From IMG/VR virus record IMGVR_UViG_2877948078_000003: a stretch of DNA of 64,000 bases. The stretch is one strand, 5' to 3'. Below, piece after piece: positions 37,152 to 55,361 of this stretch; position 1 is the stretch's first letter; the number at the start of each line of letters is the position of its first letter. The position numbers were made by a program, and so were the translations under genes. The notes beneath the pieces are model-generated. The model saw nothing but the letters and a program-made list of their open reading frames with translations, was not told the DNA's origin and did no database searches. Origin of the DNA: a virus (lineage: Duplodnaviria > Heunggongvirae > Uroviricota > Caudoviricetes).

Positions 37152-37333
37152 TAAAGAGACTTGTATTTTTCGCAATTTTCGTTCCGGTGTTGGGGGTTGG
37201 TTTTATATTTGCGATTACAGGAAACCTGTCCATGATGCCAGATATTTGGTTCTTTATCAGGATGTCGCTCTTCCTGTTTATTATGAATCTTCTTATCGAC
37301 ATATATATCCGTATTACTGGAAAACATAAATGA
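37148..37333 (+). CDS. Small hydrophobic (membrane) protein
   Basis: 61-aa ORF, two hydrophobic segments, overlapping stop-start. Confidence 0.35.
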   Translation: MIKRLVFFAIFVPVLGVGFIFAITGNLSMMPDIWFFIRMSLFLFIMNLLIDIYIRITGKHK

Positions 37334-37704
37334 GAAAAATCACGTCCTTGTCAGAGTTACAGGAGATGAATATGAGTATTGAATTAAGATCGTCTTATGA
37401 GTATCGCAAATTTCTTATCGCCGGAGGCATGAAACCGGAAGATGTGGAAAAAATCGTTTCTTTTATGGATAAGGAATGTGACAAGCGGGATGTGTCAGAA
37501 ATTATTATGGATGACATGATTCTGGATTCAGTCGTGGCGTTAAGTCCGTTATGGATTGTGCATTCTCTTGCGGAAATTGCCAAAGGCACCGATAAACAGG
37601 CAGCTGTTGCTGCCCTTCAGACGCTTAATGAAATGCGTATATCTCCACGCCCGACATTAATACAGATGATTTTGTCCAGTATGGAGGATAAAGCAAATGA
37701 ATAG
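37330..37704 (+). CDS. Hypothetical protein
   Basis: 124-aa ORF in operon context. Confidence 0.45.
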   Translation: MRKITSLSELQEMNMSIELRSSYEYRKFLIAGGMKPEDVEKIVSFMDKECDKRDVSEIIMDDMILDSVVALSPLWIVHSLAEIAKGTDKQAAVAALQTLNEMRISPRPTLIQMILSSMEDKANE

Positions 37705-37894
37705 TCTACCCGCTGGATGGGCGCGCCCTCTGATGGCTAAGAAGTATCATTTTTTTAAAACTGGCGATAATATCAGTATATGTAGGCGGTGGTTATATCT
37801 GGCTCATAATCGCGAGCCGGATACATTTGAAAGCCCTGATGACTGTGCCGAATGTCGCAGAAGACTGAATAAGGAGAAAGATAATGGACAGTAG
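37697..37894 (+). CDS. Hypothetical small protein with Cys pair (CAECRRR)
   Basis: 65-aa ORF. Confidence 0.35.
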   Translation: MNSLPAGWARPLMAKKYHFFKTGDNISICRRWLYLAHNREPDTFESPDDCAECRRRLNKEKDNGQ

Positions 37895-38180
37895 TTCGCA
37901 GTTGTTCTGGTGTTTATATATCACATCGTTTTTCGGTGCATTCGTCATTACACGATGGCTGTGCCGGAAAGTTATCAGTATTTTTCATAAAAAATACCTG
38001 ATTGGGCTGGCGGCGACTTCTCTGATTAATGCACTTGCCAGATATCATAAGGGGGAATACTACTCAAGAATAAAAACTGATGATGGTTTTAATATTTTTG
38101 TGATTCCTCCGGAGTATCGGGTTCAGCTCGATCGGGAAAGTAATATCTATCATATCAGCAGGAGTGTTGATACAGCATGA
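37884..38180 (+). CDS. Hypothetical membrane protein
   Basis: 98-aa ORF with N-terminal TM segment. Confidence 0.4.
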   Translation: MDSSSQLFWCLYITSFFGAFVITRWLCRKVISIFHKKYLIGLAATSLINALARYHKGEYYSRIKTDDGFNIFVIPPEYRVQLDRESNIYHISRSVDTA

Positions 38181-38686
38181 GAGGGAAACTGATATCCGCT
38201 ATTCATGTGGCAAAGCGCGAGCTTGCCCTGGATGATGAGACCTACACATTCGTACTACTGGCAGCCACCGGCAAAACCAGTTGCCGGGATATGTCACCCG
38301 GTGAGTTATCCCGCGTGCTGGATGTTTTCAAAAAACGCGGTTTTAAAGTGCGTCAGAAACCGGTTAACCGGGCCTTAAAACCGGGTACGGTGACCGCCAA
38401 AATTCGCGCCATCTGGAAAGTGATGCACCGGCAGGGCTTTATCTCTGATGGTGCGGAAACCGCTCTTAACCGCTGGGTGAAATCGCAGACGGCCGCGCAG
38501 AACGGCGGCGAAGGTGTGGCAAACTGGCAGTGGCTGGAGCAACACCCCGCCCTGGCCTCAGATGTGCTGGAGCGTCTCAAGCGATGGCACCGCCGCAAAA
38601 TGCTGGCCGCGATGGGAATGCCCGAACGCACGCTGATGGGGTATGACGCCGTTTGCAGGCAGTATGAAAAATCACTTCCCCGTTAA
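38177..38686 (+). CDS. gemA: GemA-like regulatory protein
   Basis: Position before Mor/C; N-terminal ISAIHVAKRELALDDETY resembles Mu gp16. Confidence 0.7.
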   Translation: MRGKLISAIHVAKRELALDDETYTFVLLAATGKTSCRDMSPGELSRVLDVFKKRGFKVRQKPVNRALKPGTVTAKIRAIWKVMHRQGFISDGAETALNRWVKSQTAAQNGGEGVANWQWLEQHPALASDVLERLKRWHRRKMLAAMGMPERTLMGYDAVCRQYEKSLPR

Positions 38687-50602: not shown

Positions 50603-50833
50603 ATGACAACCATTTTTATCAAACCCGCGCCGGGATGCCTGATTCGTGATCCCGACACAATGCGCCCGCTGGCACAGGAGGGGGAAGAAAAACCCTTCAC
50701 ACCGTTCTGGTGTCGGCGTCTTGATGACGGCGATGTGATTGAGATTGAAAAAACAGCCGGTTCTGCGGATGCACCGGCAGAAAAACCCGCAGCGACTGTA
50801 AAACCCGTGGCATCTGACAAGGAGGCTTCCTGA
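50603..50833 (+). CDS. Hypothetical small protein
   Basis: 76-aa ORF. Confidence 0.45.
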   Translation: MTTIFIKPAPGCLIRDPDTMRPLAQEGEEKPFTPFWCRRLDDGDVIEIEKTAGSADAPAEKPAATVKPVASDKEAS

Positions 50834-52314
50834 TGATCAACTTTGATTCCATCAGTAATACAAACCGTATTCCGCTTTTTCAGGCGGAATTCAATAACTC
50901 CATGGCGGTAACCGGTACTCCGCCGCAGCGTCAGTGTGTCCTGTTGTTCGGACAGAGAAGTTCTTCTGTTGGTGGTGTTATTAACGTTCCGTACCGTATC
51001 ACAAGGGCAGAACAGGCCGCCGAGCGCTGGGGAAGAGGCTCCATGATTGCCCGCATGGTGGCTGAATTTATTGCCATCAATCCTGATACAGAACTGTATG
51101 CCATCGCACAGGATAACGGGACAGGCAAAAACGACGCCGGAACGATTACGATGAGCGGAACATCCGTTGTTGACGGTGTGCTCAGTATTTATATCGCCGG
51201 TAAGGGGTATCCGGTGGCTGTCAGCAAAGGAGAAAAAGCGGCGGATGTTGCCGGAAAACTGGCTCTGCTCATAAATCAGGATCTGGATGCGCCTGTTGCT
51301 GCTGTGGCAAACGCCCCGTCAGACAATAGTGATGCCACAAAAAAAGTCATCGCACTGTCAGCAAAGTTCGTCAGCGAGTGTGACCATGATGTCCGGCTGA
51401 ATTACTACCCGGAGGATGTTGCTCCGCTGGGGATTACCGTGATCATCTCCGGTCGCTCAGCCGTCCCCAAAAACCCGGATATCACCCGCAGCGTGGCTGC
51501 GATGGGGGATCGGCAGTACAACTATATCGTCATGCCGTATAAAGATGCAGCCAATCTGAAGATTCTGGCGAACGAACTGCTGACGCGCTGGGGACCGGAA
51601 AAAATGAATGATGGTATGGTCTGGATGGCGCATACCGGTACGTTTGGTAATGTGTCCAGCTTCGGGGAGTCCAGAAATGATTTTCTGTTTACCTGTACCG
51701 CGATCCCAAAAGCACCGGAGCCGGATTATATCTGGGCAGCCACCCTGTGCGCCACCTGTGCGCCGTCTTTATCAGTCGATCCGGCGCGACCTCTGCAATC
51801 TCTGGCATTGCCTTCCCGACTGGCTCCGGCATTGTCTGCCCGCCTTACAAATGAGGAACGAAACAGTCTGTTGTATACGGGGATTTCCACAGTAACGGTG
51901 GGAGCCGGTGATGTGATGCAGATTGAGCGTCAGGTGACCATGTATCGCCAGAACGCATACGGCGAAAGCGATCCCAGCTATCTGGATGTGGAAACCATCT
52001 ACACCCTGTCATATCTGCGTTACTCCCTGCGGGTATTCATTACACAGCGTTTCCCCCGCCATAAGCTGGCAGATGACGGAACGCCTGTTGGTCCCGGACA
52101 GTTCATTGTGACACCGCAGATCATGAAGCTCCAGTTGATTGCTCTGGGTGAAGAGTGGATTGAACAGGGGCTGGTCGAGAATATGGAGGTATTTAAAAAC
52201 AATCTGCTTGTGGAGCGTAACGCAACCGATCGTAACCGTCTGGATGTGATGTGTACACCGGACCTGGTTAACCAGTTCCGCTTCATGGCAGCGCAGATCC
52301 GTTTCATTTTGTGA
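50833..52314 (+). CDS. Contractile tail sheath protein
   Basis: 493 aa, followed by tube gene. Confidence 0.85.
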   Translation: MINFDSISNTNRIPLFQAEFNNSMAVTGTPPQRQCVLLFGQRSSSVGGVINVPYRITRAEQAAERWGRGSMIARMVAEFIAINPDTELYAIAQDNGTGKNDAGTITMSGTSVVDGVLSIYIAGKGYPVAVSKGEKAADVAGKLALLINQDLDAPVAAVANAPSDNSDATKKVIALSAKFVSECDHDVRLNYYPEDVAPLGITVIISGRSAVPKNPDITRSVAAMGDRQYNYIVMPYKDAANLKILANELLTRWGPEKMNDGMVWMAHTGTFGNVSSFGESRNDFLFTCTAIPKAPEPDYIWAATLCATCAPSLSVDPARPLQSLALPSRLAPALSARLTNEERNSLLYTGISTVTVGAGDVMQIERQVTMYRQNAYGESDPSYLDVETIYTLSYLRYSLRVFITQRFPRHKLADDGTPVGPGQFIVTPQIMKLQLIALGEEWIEQGLVENMEVFKNNLLVERNATDRNRLDVMCTPDLVNQFRFMAAQIRFIL

Positions 52315-52322
52315 GGTAAGGC

Positions 52323-52688
52323 ATGAGCGGAAAACAGTATCAGGGCACGGCCACTATCCGTGTGAACGGTCAGGAATACTCCACCCTTGAGGGGGCCACG
52401 TTCTCCCCGTCCGGCTTTGAGCGTGAAGTGGTGAAAGGCGCAAAAGTCTATGGCTATCGCGAGAAACCACGTGAAGCGACGCTGGACTGCAAATTTCCGG
52501 CAGGCGGAGACGGTTCACCGGCTGCTGATGAAATCAACACCTGGACTGCGGTCACCATCGAGTTTGTGGCGGACACCGGCGAAGTCCACATGATGACGAA
52601 GGCCTGGAGCAGTGAACCGGCCTCACTTGACGGTGGCGGGGAGATCTCCGCGAAGTTCGCCAGTGCCACCAGTACCCGTGTCCAGTAA
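52323..52688 (+). CDS. Tail tube protein
   Basis: 121 aa directly after the sheath gene. Confidence 0.8.
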   Translation: MSGKQYQGTATIRVNGQEYSTLEGATFSPSGFEREVVKGAKVYGYREKPREATLDCKFPAGGDGSPAADEINTWTAVTIEFVADTGEVHMMTKAWSSEPASLDGGGEISAKFASATSTRVQ

Positions 52689-52702: not shown

Positions 52703-53179
52703 ATGACCACACGTAAGAAAAAAACAGCGGTTTCTGACGAAGCCGTTATTGAGGCTATCCGTGATGCACTTGAGGACGGCGATCCACGCACCGCCGGTCT
52801 GGCTGAACAACTGGCGAAAGGCTATGTGGATCTGCTTGATGGTCTGCCATTCGGTGAGTCCCGTGAATACCGCGTCACCTTCCGTGAACTGACGGCGAAA
52901 GACAGCATTGATGCGGAAACCGATGCTGAACGTCTTATGGAAACCCGAAATGGCCCGGTTCTGGTGGCATCACCGGCCCTGCGCGGTATTGCGCTGCTGC
53001 GTCGCCAGATTGCCGCTGTCGGTGACATTCAGGGGCCGTTGTCACAACGCCAGATTGGACAGTTAAGCGAGCGCGATCTCTCCCGTCTGATGGCAGCGGT
53101 CAGCCTGCTGGATACAGCGCTTGCCGGAAAGCTGGCGGCTGATCGGGGGCGAGCAGGCGCAGTGTCGGGCGCAGATTGA
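52703..53179 (+). CDS. Tail assembly chaperone candidate
   Basis: 158-aa ORF between tube and tape measure; overlapping downstream ORF 53121-53303 in another frame. Confidence 0.55.
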   Translation: MTTRKKKTAVSDEAVIEAIRDALEDGDPRTAGLAEQLAKGYVDLLDGLPFGESREYRVTFRELTAKDSIDAETDAERLMETRNGPVLVASPALRGIALLRRQIAAVGDIQGPLSQRQIGQLSERDLSRLMAAVSLLDTALAGKLAADRGRAGAVSGAD

Positions 53180-53306
53180 AGAAGCGGCAATAGTGCTGGG
53201 GATGGTGACCAGAAGCGGCCCGGAATGGGCACTTAACCTCCCCTTATCGCAACTTTACCGGCACTGCCAACAAACGGAAAAAATTCTCAGAACGAAGCAG
53301 TAATCC

Positions 53307-55361
53307 ATGGCAAAAAACCTGAAAGCCTCCCTGATTGTCGATTTACTCGGCAATGTTTCCGCCAAATCCCGCCAGTGGTCACAGGAGCTGGGAGCGTTCT
53401 CCCGCGTCGGCAGGACGGGGCTGGGTGGTATTGGAAATGCAGCCCGCCGTGCCGGTCAGGAGACAGAGCTTGTCGGCTCCCGTATGCAGCGTACGCTTGC
53501 CGGTGTCCGTGGCAGTATCCGCACGGTAACGTCGGATTTTGACCGTCTTCAGGGCAGTATTACCGGCACACTGGGACGTCTCAGCAACCTTTACGGGATG
53601 CTGGCAGGAGGGGCTGCGGTCTACGGTTTTAATAAAGCCTTTATCCGCCCGGCCGCAGAGATGGAGAACTATATTCTGCGTCTCAATGCCATTAATCATG
53701 GCGATACGGCAAAAACGGAAGCAGTGAAAGCCTGGGCGGTACAGAACGCAAAGGAAACCACCTGGGGGCTGGCGGGGGTTATGCAGGAATACGCCTCCAG
53801 TCGCGGGTTCGGTATGAGTGACAGGGAAGCCCGCCGCTTTATTACCATGCTTCAGGATCAGGGCGGCTATCACGGCTGGTCACTGTCAGATGCACAGGGT
53901 GCGTCCCTGCAACTCAAACAGATGTTTGCCCGCCAGAGTATCCAGGCCGCGGACGCCAGTATCCTGACCGGATACGGGATAAACGTTTACCAGTTGCTGG
54001 CCGATAAACTGGGTGTAAACCAGAAGACCATCCGTGAGAAAGGCGAGAAAGGAAAACTGGGACCGGACAGCATTCGGCTGTTATTTCAGGTGATGGCCGA
54101 ACAGGCAAAAGGTGCCCAGAAAAACGCCATGAACTCATGGACAGGGATGACATCCATGATGGGCGACGTCTGGGACGGATTTGCCCGTGAAGTAATGGCA
54201 AAAGGGCCATTTGACAGCCTGAAAAAGAGCCTGAAAGGCTTCCTGGATTATGCCGATGCGGCACAGAAAAGCGGCTTACAGGACAAGCTGGCCACACAAA
54301 CAGCCTCAGCCCTGAATCAGGGGTTTGAGTATGCCAGAGACGCAGCGACGGGTTTTTACCGGGCCATTCAGAAAGTCAGGGAAACGCTTCAGGCATTGCG
54401 TGACGCTGGTTATGGCGATGCGCTGAATCGCATTGGTCAGGGCGCACAGACCGCCGCGAAATATCTCCTGTATATGTATCTCGCCACCCGTGCGCTGAAG
54501 GCTGTCCGCGCCATAGGTCTTGGGGCACTGCGACCGGGGGCGGCATTGTTGGGGTACGGGTTATCCACGGCCGCTGTGCTGACCTCGCCTTTTCGTAAAC
54601 CGCAGACCACCGTTCCGGGCACGCAGCCAGGACGTGGCCAGCGTTTTATGAACTTTCTTACCGGGGTAAATCCTGCTGCCGTTCAGCCCGTACTGGTCAC
54701 CAACTGGCCTGCGGGTGGTCTGGCATCAGGTGGCGGGGATGTGGTGGTCAGCGGTGACGGCAAAACCGTGCGCGGTCGTAAAAAACGCGGCCCCGGACGT
54801 GGGCGGGGTGTTTCGACCGTTGTGACCGCAGGCGAACAACTGGCAGAGAGTGCCGGTAAACAGGGCTTCTTCGGTCGAATGATGAGCCGTGCCGGTGGTC
54901 TGCTTTCGGCTGCCGGAAACCGCATGGGACTGGGGCGTTTTGCCGGGCTTTTCCGTGGTGCTGGTCGGCTGGGTGGTGGTGCCCTGTGGGCCGGTGCCAT
55001 GGCGGCTCCTGTACTGCTGGACAGCAGTGCCAGTGCCGTTGATAAAGCCGGTGCCGTGGGTTCCCTTGCCGGAAGTATCGCCGGTGGTGCGCTGGGGGCT
55101 GCCGCCGGTCCGGTCGGGGTTGCCATTGGTTCCACGGTGGGCAGTTATCTCGGTGATTATCTGGGGGGATGGCTGACCGAAGCCTGGCAGAAATTACGGG
55201 GCAGTGATGAAAATGGCGGACAGGCCACCGCGAAAACCGCCGCACGGGTGGAGCTTGTGGCCCCTGAAGGCTGGCGGGCACGCAGTATTGATGTGGATGA
55301 TACCGTACAGCATGGCCTGGATGTGAACGTCTGGAACGGAGGGAACTATGGCCTCTACTGA
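53307..55361 (+). CDS. Tail tape measure protein
   Basis: 684 aa, Gly/Ala-rich, position. Confidence 0.8.
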   Translation: MAKNLKASLIVDLLGNVSAKSRQWSQELGAFSRVGRTGLGGIGNAARRAGQETELVGSRMQRTLAGVRGSIRTVTSDFDRLQGSITGTLGRLSNLYGMLAGGAAVYGFNKAFIRPAAEMENYILRLNAINHGDTAKTEAVKAWAVQNAKETTWGLAGVMQEYASSRGFGMSDREARRFITMLQDQGGYHGWSLSDAQGASLQLKQMFARQSIQAADASILTGYGINVYQLLADKLGVNQKTIREKGEKGKLGPDSIRLLFQVMAEQAKGAQKNAMNSWTGMTSMMGDVWDGFAREVMAKGPFDSLKKSLKGFLDYADAAQKSGLQDKLATQTASALNQGFEYARDAATGFYRAIQKVRETLQALRDAGYGDALNRIGQGAQTAAKYLLYMYLATRALKAVRAIGLGALRPGAALLGYGLSTAAVLTSPFRKPQTTVPGTQPGRGQRFMNFLTGVNPAAVQPVLVTNWPAGGLASGGGDVVVSGDGKTVRGRKKRGPGRGRGVSTVVTAGEQLAESAGKQGFFGRMMSRAGGLLSAAGNRMGLGRFAGLFRGAGRLGGGALWAGAMAAPVLLDSSASAVDKAGAVGSLAGSIAGGALGAAAGPVGVAIGSTVGSYLGDYLGGWLTEAWQKLRGSDENGGQATAKTAARVELVAPEGWRARSIDVDDTVQHGLDVNVWNGGNYGLY

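Follow-up and report, generated by a model that had tools for sequence, protein, structure and literature searches.

A short gene between the tail tube and tape measure genes of a Mu-like contractile-tail phage is overlapped near its end by a second open frame, which raises the question of whether some ribosomes cross from the one frame into the other and, if they do, in which direction they move. We analysed this locus in a stretch of 64,000 nucleotides (hereafter the window), in which Pfam assigns a tail sheath gene (50833-52314) and a tail tube gene (52323-52688, plus strand; PF10618 Tail_tube, E 8e-31; RefSeq 'phage tail tube protein' in a 99.4%-identical prophage) upstream of the short gene. 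Downstream of it lies the tape measure gene (53307-55361, plus strand; PF20155 TMP_3, E 4e-18; RefSeq 'tape measure protein'), an ORF of 684 aa that opens with an ATG at 53307. The initial annotation had placed a 158-aa ORF at 52703-53179 between tube and tape measure, and both the ORF itself (plus strand, ATG start, TGA stop) and the Pfam assignments uphold this. Its product matches the Pfam family Gp41_Mu (PF23746, 'Tail assembly protein gp41'; E 1e-31, 109.6 bits at a cut-off of 27) and PHROG 508 'tail assembly chaperone' (E 1e-43), and its match to Phage_TAC_7, the P2 E type, falls below the cut-off (23.3 vs 25 bits). Taken together with its match to Mu, described below, the short gene is the zero-frame tail assembly chaperone, the 'G' analogue and homologue of Mu gp41.

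The overlapping frame is offset by +1, or equivalently -2, from the chaperone frame (class 0 vs class 2 mod 3), just as had been claimed. Of the open span first given for it, 53121-53303, the end is correct, whereas the frame is already open from 53091, and 53121 is merely its first TTG; from stop to stop (53091-53303), it measures 71 codons. Its TAA at 53301-53303 is followed by the three bases TCC and then by the tape measure ATG at 53307. The -1 frame is closed 4 codons beyond the chaperone stop, so it never reaches the tape measure gene, and an in-phase scan for X_XXY_YYZ found no such heptamer anywhere in the chaperone ORF, in agreement with the earlier remark that a canonical slippery heptamer is missing. 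What the two frames do share is a run of five Gs (53145-53149), read as GAT CGG GGG CGA GCA in the zero frame and as ATC GGG GGC GAG CAG in the second frame. The anatomy alone offers little proof: among neighbouring phage genes, off-frame stretches of at least 71 codons amount to 2% of stretches and 10% of off-frame codons, and a 71-codon open frame is by itself only mildly unusual in GC-rich phage DNA.

A programmed -2 frameshift in the tail assembly chaperone of phage Mu was reportedly described by Xu, Hendrix and Duda in 2004 (Mol Cell 16:11). The GenBank record of Mu (AF083977.1) contains two coding sequences that share one ATG, namely Mu_41, the 144-aa chaperone, and Mu_56, a two-piece join that carries the note 'verified -2 translational frameshift in PMID 15469818; tail assembly chaperone frameshift product'. 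Where we call the Mu shift verified, we do so on the basis of this GenBank note, of UniProt P0DJY4 and of secondary citations. Natural -2 frameshifting makes the Mu analogue of gpGT at a level of ~2.2% (PMC3498833, PMC5009743). The Mu zero frame reads GAA CGG GGG CGA GTG, and its ten bases CGGGGGCGAG are those of the window in the same codon phase; they also stand in this phase in D108 and SfMu. The G run that the initial annotation had singled out as a candidate thus lies within a nonamer, CGG GGG CGA (53144-53152, plus strand), that is identical to that of Mu in sequence and phase. Upon modelling a -2 slip on GGG for Mu, we obtained a protein of 188 aa in which every residue agrees with UniProt P0DJY4 ('Probable tail assembly protein FS-gp41') and with GenBank UIW09302.1; the junction in P0DJY4 is Gly-Gly. 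Hence the position and manner of the shift modelled here are the accepted ones.

Homology to Mu extends to both parts of the protein. The chaperone is 48% identical to Mu gp41 (tblastn, E 1e-26) and the window extension GGEQAQCRAQIEEAAIVLGMVTRSGPEWALNLPLSQLYRHCQQTEKILRTKQ is 55% identical to that of Mu (26/47, E 5e-22), so that conservation is higher in the extension than in the chaperone, and the extension has a further match in PHROG 12783 (E 6e-35). The two loci further agree in the position of the gene between tube and tape measure, in the Pfam family of the zero-frame product, in the target frame, in the shift site (C GGG GGC GAG in the same phase), in an extension of 51 residues after the slip and in the lack of an obvious RNA or Shine-Dalgarno (SD) stimulator. 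They differ in ~14 extra N-terminal residues of the window chaperone, in how far the zero frame extends past the GGG codon (30 nt in the window vs 24 nt in Mu) and in the gap between the stop of the extension and the tape measure ATG (3 nt vs 14 nt). Moreover, the fusion was shown experimentally for Mu, whereas the window lineage is known from sequence and no database annotates a fusion there. The comparison with the annotated Mu chaperone frameshift that had been proposed at the outset therefore yields the same site and a homologous extension (AF083977 Mu_56, P0DJY4), and the suspected conserved chaperone frameshift arrangement is substantiated by the Mu homology of both parts and by 94 relatives.

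These relatives were gathered from GenBank phages, E. coli genomes, IMG/VR and GTDB genomes (profile search, 14 loci), and 79 distinct segments were aligned with MAFFT and thinned to 28 representatives with pairwise identities below 85%, compared over 316 columns. Among these representatives, GGGGCGA is the sole invariant run longer than one column in the entire alignment. The core G GGG CGA (53146-53152 in the window, plus strand) occurs in phase in 94 of the 95 distinct relatives, and the one exception has lost a G, by which the two frames are directly fused. A run of five Gs is present in 70 sequences, where GGG is preceded by CGG (67) or AGG (3), and a run of four in 24 of the 95, where it is preceded by GAG (15), AAG (8) or TCG (1); one MAG has a run of seven. 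The codon before GGG stands for R, K, S, E or G depending on the lineage, yet its last base is always G, and its middle base is G in 70 of 94. Since the spelling of Arg-Gly-Arg as [C/A]GG GGG CGA has a probability of P = 0.0022 under the phage's own codon usage, the invariant protein motif 'RGR' is best read as the shadow of a nucleotide signal. The second frame, which the initial annotation had allowed might prove unconserved in related phages, is conserved from Escherichia to Vibrio. A tblastn search towards the boundary of the family, made with a distant seed, gave the same 31 phage records. Chaperones of the BcepMu/KS10 type have been reported without a slip site (PMC2628397), and a candidate in a Burkholderia phage paper, GGGGGCGA, turned out to be part of a ribosome-binding site and not a shift site.

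We then asked the sequences themselves whether the second frame is coding, using ten distinct E. coli-clade sequences that align without gaps over the 40 codons beyond the chaperone stop. Variable columns are distributed 4/4/17 over second-frame codon positions 1/2/3 (chi-square p = 0.001), and codon differences from the window amount to 59 synonymous and 21 non-synonymous ones in the second frame, compared to 3:76 and 6:66 in the other frames, while none of the ten copies contains an internal stop. This substitution pattern indicates that the second frame is under purifying selection. In all 94 relatives, the +1/-2 frame remains open for 31-47 codons (median 41) past the chaperone stop, as opposed to a median of 12 for the -1 frame, and in every case its end coincides with the tape measure start or lies just inside it. 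It is this conservation across relatives, and not the open length, that places the second frame far above chance.

The same set of relatives reveals where the frame is entered. There is no conserved initiator: Mu, the relative L060 and several lineages have no ATG, GTG or TTG from the upstream stop to 20 codons past the site, and the start candidates of the window (TTG 53121, GTG 53193 and ATG 53202) lack a convincing Shine-Dalgarno sequence and are not shared among relatives. Relatives from Shewanella and Vibrio have their zero-frame stop two codons beyond CGA, and the second frame runs ~45 codons further; in Photorhabdus/Xenorhabdus the zero-frame stop follows directly upon CGA, with the second frame continuing for ~45 codons to the tape measure start. 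Protein-level conservation of the second frame begins exactly at the shift site (GG[E/D]...C-R...IE). Given the absence of a conserved start and the early zero-frame stops, the second frame must be entered at the site, from the chaperone frame.

By analogy with Mu, we consider it very probable that the window site is the orthologue of the programmed -2 ribosomal frameshift of Mu gp41/FS-gp41, carried by an Sp18-like prophage. Most ribosomes would translate 52703-53179 and release the 158-aa chaperone, and a small fraction would pause while tRNA-Gly occupies the P site on the GGG at 53147-53149 and the rare zero-frame codon CGA (53150-53152) stands in the A site. The tRNA-Gly would then slip two bases back onto the GGG at 53145-53147, upon which GGC (53148-53150), a codon read by an abundant tRNA, would enter the A site and reading would continue to the TAA at 53301-53303. 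In the genes of this phage, CGA makes up 5% of the Arg codons and GGG 19% of the Gly codons. The predicted product is a fusion of 200 aa, join(52703..53149,53148..53303) on the plus strand (...AADRG-GEQAQCRAQIEE...TKQ), with the same N-terminal 149 residues as the chaperone and a different C-terminus of 51 residues. This C-terminus would be encoded by the second-frame extension at 53148-53303 (plus strand; 51 codons, of which GGC is the first one read after the slip, plus TAA), the 'T' analogue that corresponds to Mu gene 41.5 or the C-terminal part of FS-gp41. The fusion may account for a few percent of the product, judging by the ~2% reported for Mu. If the analogy with lambda gpG/gpGT holds, the part common to both forms would bind or coat the tape measure protein and the extension would recruit the tail tube subunit; frameshift efficiency would fix the proportion in which the two forms are made, and both would be expected to be missing from the mature virion. 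The structure of the Mu virion did not resolve gp41 (PMC11915804), as would be the case for a chaperone that does not stay in the particle.

Other explanations for the overlapping frame have to be weighed against this. An open frame that arose by chance in GC-rich DNA and is not expressed would draw on the fact that off-frame stretches of this length are not very rare, but the comparative data effectively refute it, as the frame is open in all 94 relatives, its product is homologous to that of Mu and its differences are synonymous at a ratio of 59:21; we give this reading almost no credence. A separate small gene, started at TTG 53121, GTG 53193 or ATG 53202, or else translated by ribosomes that reinitiate beyond the chaperone stop, would accord with the 60-aa ORF from TTG 53121 being listed as a 'hypothetical protein' in several E. 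coli records and with the separate annotation of 41.5 in D108. It seems highly improbable, however, given start candidates that are poorly equipped and not conserved, the lack of any candidate in Mu, L060 and others, and second-frame conservation that sets in at the shift site. Slippage could also take place during transcription, with RNA polymerase adding two Gs to the run of five or dropping one, so that a minority of mRNAs would encode the fusion directly. The run is a homopolymer, losses of one G that fuse the frames do occur in databases (L074; P0032, P0038), and an insertion of two Gs would result in the same protein as the -2 ribosomal slip. The known transcriptional slippage sites of bacteria are A or T tracts with a length of ~7 or above (reviewed in PMC5009743). 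Compared to known sites, five Gs are short, a quarter of the relatives have only four, and neither the invariant CGA nor the strict codon phase would have a role, all of which renders transcriptional slippage very unlikely in our view.

The remaining alternative keeps the ribosome and the site and changes the direction: tRNA-Gly on the GGG at 53147-53149 could slip forward onto GGC while the slow CGA occupies the A site, yielding a protein of 199 aa with a single Gly at the junction. Such a +1 slip would reach the same target frame, and a CGA that invariably follows GGG is in line with the 'hungry A-site codon' logic of sites such as prfB; at the four-G variants, moreover, re-pairing is equally good at +1 (GGC, with a wobble mismatch) and at -2 (AGG/CGG, with a first-position mismatch). 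Yet the identical site of Mu is annotated as a verified -2 shift and P0DJY4 has Gly-Gly at the junction. The argument for backward movement is that the base before GGG is constrained as G, on which a +1 slip would put no constraint; a forward slip likewise gives no reason for the G before that one (70/94). We therefore regard a +1 slip as improbable. The statement of the initial annotation that the shift would have to be +1 accordingly stands as regards the target frame but not as regards the movement, since by homology with Mu this frame would almost certainly be reached by a -2 slip. The two movements predict different junction peptides, ...LAADRGGEQAQCR for -2 and ...LAADRGEQAQCR for +1.

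A point against the frameshift is that the window site appears bare. Upstream, the best anti-SD duplex has -4.8 kcal vs a background mean of -4.6, which does not amount to an SD-like stimulator, and none is found in Mu either. The fold of the 60 nt downstream is not significant in the window (z = -1.4) or in Mu (z = -0.2), and a consensus fold of five sequences over the downstream region gained a negligible covariation term of -0.76 kcal; the rows for L087 and L100 were left out of the downstream-fold comparison, because they represented the wrong occurrence of the motif. A site without stimulators does agree with the low efficiency that has been reported for Mu.

Several other lineages of the family are equipped differently. 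The Photorhabdus/Xenorhabdus sequences (L100-L109, L153-L177), which read GAG GGG CGA TAG, contain a stem of ~13 bp located 5-6 nt downstream, with z down to -4.2, and the Pasteurellaceae-like relatives L009, L083, L085 and L086 have a stem of 10-12 bp 6 nt after CGA, with apparently compensatory changes between AACAAG/CTTGTT and AGCAGA/TCTGCT; no comparable hairpin was seen in the window or in Mu. Upstream, many lineages have either AGGTGG or CAGGTGG with its end exactly 8 nt before GGG or, in Vibrio and Shewanella phages, AGGAG or GGAGG 11-13 nt before GGG; sequences with one or the other are L009, L011, L083, L085, L086, L092, L093, L100, L109 and L012-L014. These SD-like elements, which are absent from the window and Mu, form anti-SD duplexes of -6 to -14 kcal. 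They may be stimulators of backward slippage, or they may merely reflect conserved Q/K/E-V codons.

The length of the G run varies as well. Sites with four Gs occur in L038-L043, L045, L046 and L096 (Citrobacter braakii), in L051, in L100-L109 and in L153-L189 (Photorhabdus/Xenorhabdus). At these sites, the landing codon of a -2 slip is AGG or CGG, mismatched at its first position, and the second frame is nevertheless open and conserved. The AAG lineage, from Citrobacter and other enterobacteria, is nearer to the window chaperone (75-81% aa identity) than Mu is. As four Gs are found in 24 of 95 relatives, perfect re-pairing at -2 is not universally required in the family. A tentative reading, which we hold to be possible but rather doubtful, is that the true signal is the heptamer G GGG CGA and not the G5 run of Mu, to which individual clades have added different helpers. 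At least three four-G lineages (AAG, GAG and TCG) would then tolerate a first-position mismatch at -2, or use +1 instead; the helpers would be a zero-frame stop after CGA together with a 13-bp hairpin in some clades and AGGTGG 8 nt upstream in others, with none in the Mu and E. coli clades. If this were true, the family would offer a naturally occurring set of alleles with which bacterial -2 frameshifting could be dissected.

A few sequences depart from the general arrangement altogether. L074/L190 (IMG/VR 2758568005_000002) and the copies behind the proteins P0032 and P0038 from Logan assemblies have one G fewer and hence a direct in-frame fusion, which amounts to 187 aa in the Mu-like assemblies, while L074 shifts frame again ~30 codons later; these copies reflect sequencing errors in the homopolymer, or else prophages that are decaying or mutated. 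In L099 (Apirhabdus apintestini CP138906.1), the chaperone gene is split over two frames upstream of the shift site, reflecting either a pseudogene or an assembly error.

How does the predicted -2 shift compare with recoding in other systems? With lambda gpG/gpGT and P2 E/E+E', the locus shares a common N-terminus for two forms that are encoded just upstream of the tape measure gene. The forms of lambda-type chaperones are made in a fixed low ratio and neither is present in the virion (PMC5009743, also for the functional roles of gpG/gpGT). This likeness is a functional analogy and not family membership, and no sequence similarity to lambda G/T was detectable. Mechanistically, a -2 slip of a single P-site tRNA on a G run, as predicted for the window, differs from the -1 tandem slip of lambda on X XXY YYZ; the chaperone ORF has no in-phase heptamer and its -1 frame is closed. 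Unlike stimulated sites of the dnaX type, the window site has neither an SD-like element ~10 nt upstream nor a stable structure 5-8 nt downstream. At the +1 site of prfB (RF2) and at 'hungry A-site codon' sites, a single P-site tRNA slips while the A-site codon is slowly decoded. The window would resemble prfB in this respect, with the rare CGA as the slowly decoded codon, but the predicted movement is two bases back instead of one forward, an upstream SD at the prfB spacing is lacking, and the purpose would be a fixed ratio of products, as opposed to autoregulation in prfB.

The element that carries this site is an Sp18-like Mu-type prophage of E. coli; transposable phages of this kind have been described at genome level for STEC (PMC10132054). 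The chaperone gene of the prophage is present in about 230 of 5,426 complete E. coli genomes, and the chaperone region shares 99% identity with the 'inserted Mu-like phage' of two records of Stx-converting phages (LC727881, LC727895). The prophage of E. coli 2012EL-2448, which is 97%-99.4% identical, is a complete Mu-type element with genes for Gam, Mor, portal, a gpT-type head subunit, sheath, tube, chaperone and tape measure, as well as a gpN-like protein, baseplate, a Gin-like invertase and Com. In the window, the Mu-like element starts near 28.5 kb, and to its left (about 22000-28500) lie the lambdoid lysozyme R, Rz, Nu1 and terminase A genes, ~92% identical to lambdoid coliphages. A transposable phage thus appears to have inserted inside another prophage, as in LC727881 and LC727895; the same nested arrangement was reported for STEC CC119 (PMC10132054).

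Copies of the prophage differ in two other regions. The segment 61431-62373 of the window (~0.94 kb) is inverted relative to the 2012EL-2448 prophage, is flanked by inverted repeats of 200 nt (61009-61208 and 62174-62373, 73% complementary) and adjoins tail-fibre, tail-fibre-assembly and recombinase genes; the region 61009-62373 looks like an invertible host-range cassette of the Mu G-segment type in the opposite orientation. In the early region, ~1.1 kb of the window (37154-38237) has no alignment to the reference prophage, which has ~1.9 kb there, including a copy of IS1A; here the two copies are not alike. It is possible that the prophage has become defective or is silent in its host, and the shift signal would then be conserved yet idle at present.

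In the databases, the fusion is missing. Neither the 200-aa fusion nor the 199-aa product of the +1 alternative is present in a collection of 15 billion proteins, and in every copy that we inspected the RefSeq (PGAP) annotation is confined to the short 'phage tail assembly protein', although the same pipeline does annotate the programmed frameshift of IS1 inside the same prophage. Some records contain the extension as a 'hypothetical protein' of its own (for instance EFI8345155.1, 60 aa counted from the TTG), and the others lack it. PHROG 12783, of 'unknown function', is evidently the C-terminal part of the frameshift product, collected where it has been called separately, as gene 41.5 was in D108. 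NCBIfam has no model for the chaperone part or for the extension, and the PDB contains no chain related to them by sequence.

The window site thus represents an orthologue, as yet unannotated, of a type of recoding that has been known since 2004, and in mechanism it adds nothing new beyond Mu; what might be new is found only family-wide, in the four-G variants and in the clade-specific hairpins and SD-like elements. Its practical value lies in annotation, as the fusion could be recovered in prophages of E. coli and in many of those of Citrobacter, Photorhabdus, Pasteurellaceae and Vibrio by a simple rule, namely a Gp41_Mu domain and an in-phase G GGG CGA, followed by a join at the -2 offset. 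To our knowledge, -2 frameshifting remains rare in bacteria, and the comparative series of four-G and seven-G runs, hairpins and SD-like elements in this family could help studies of how it works.
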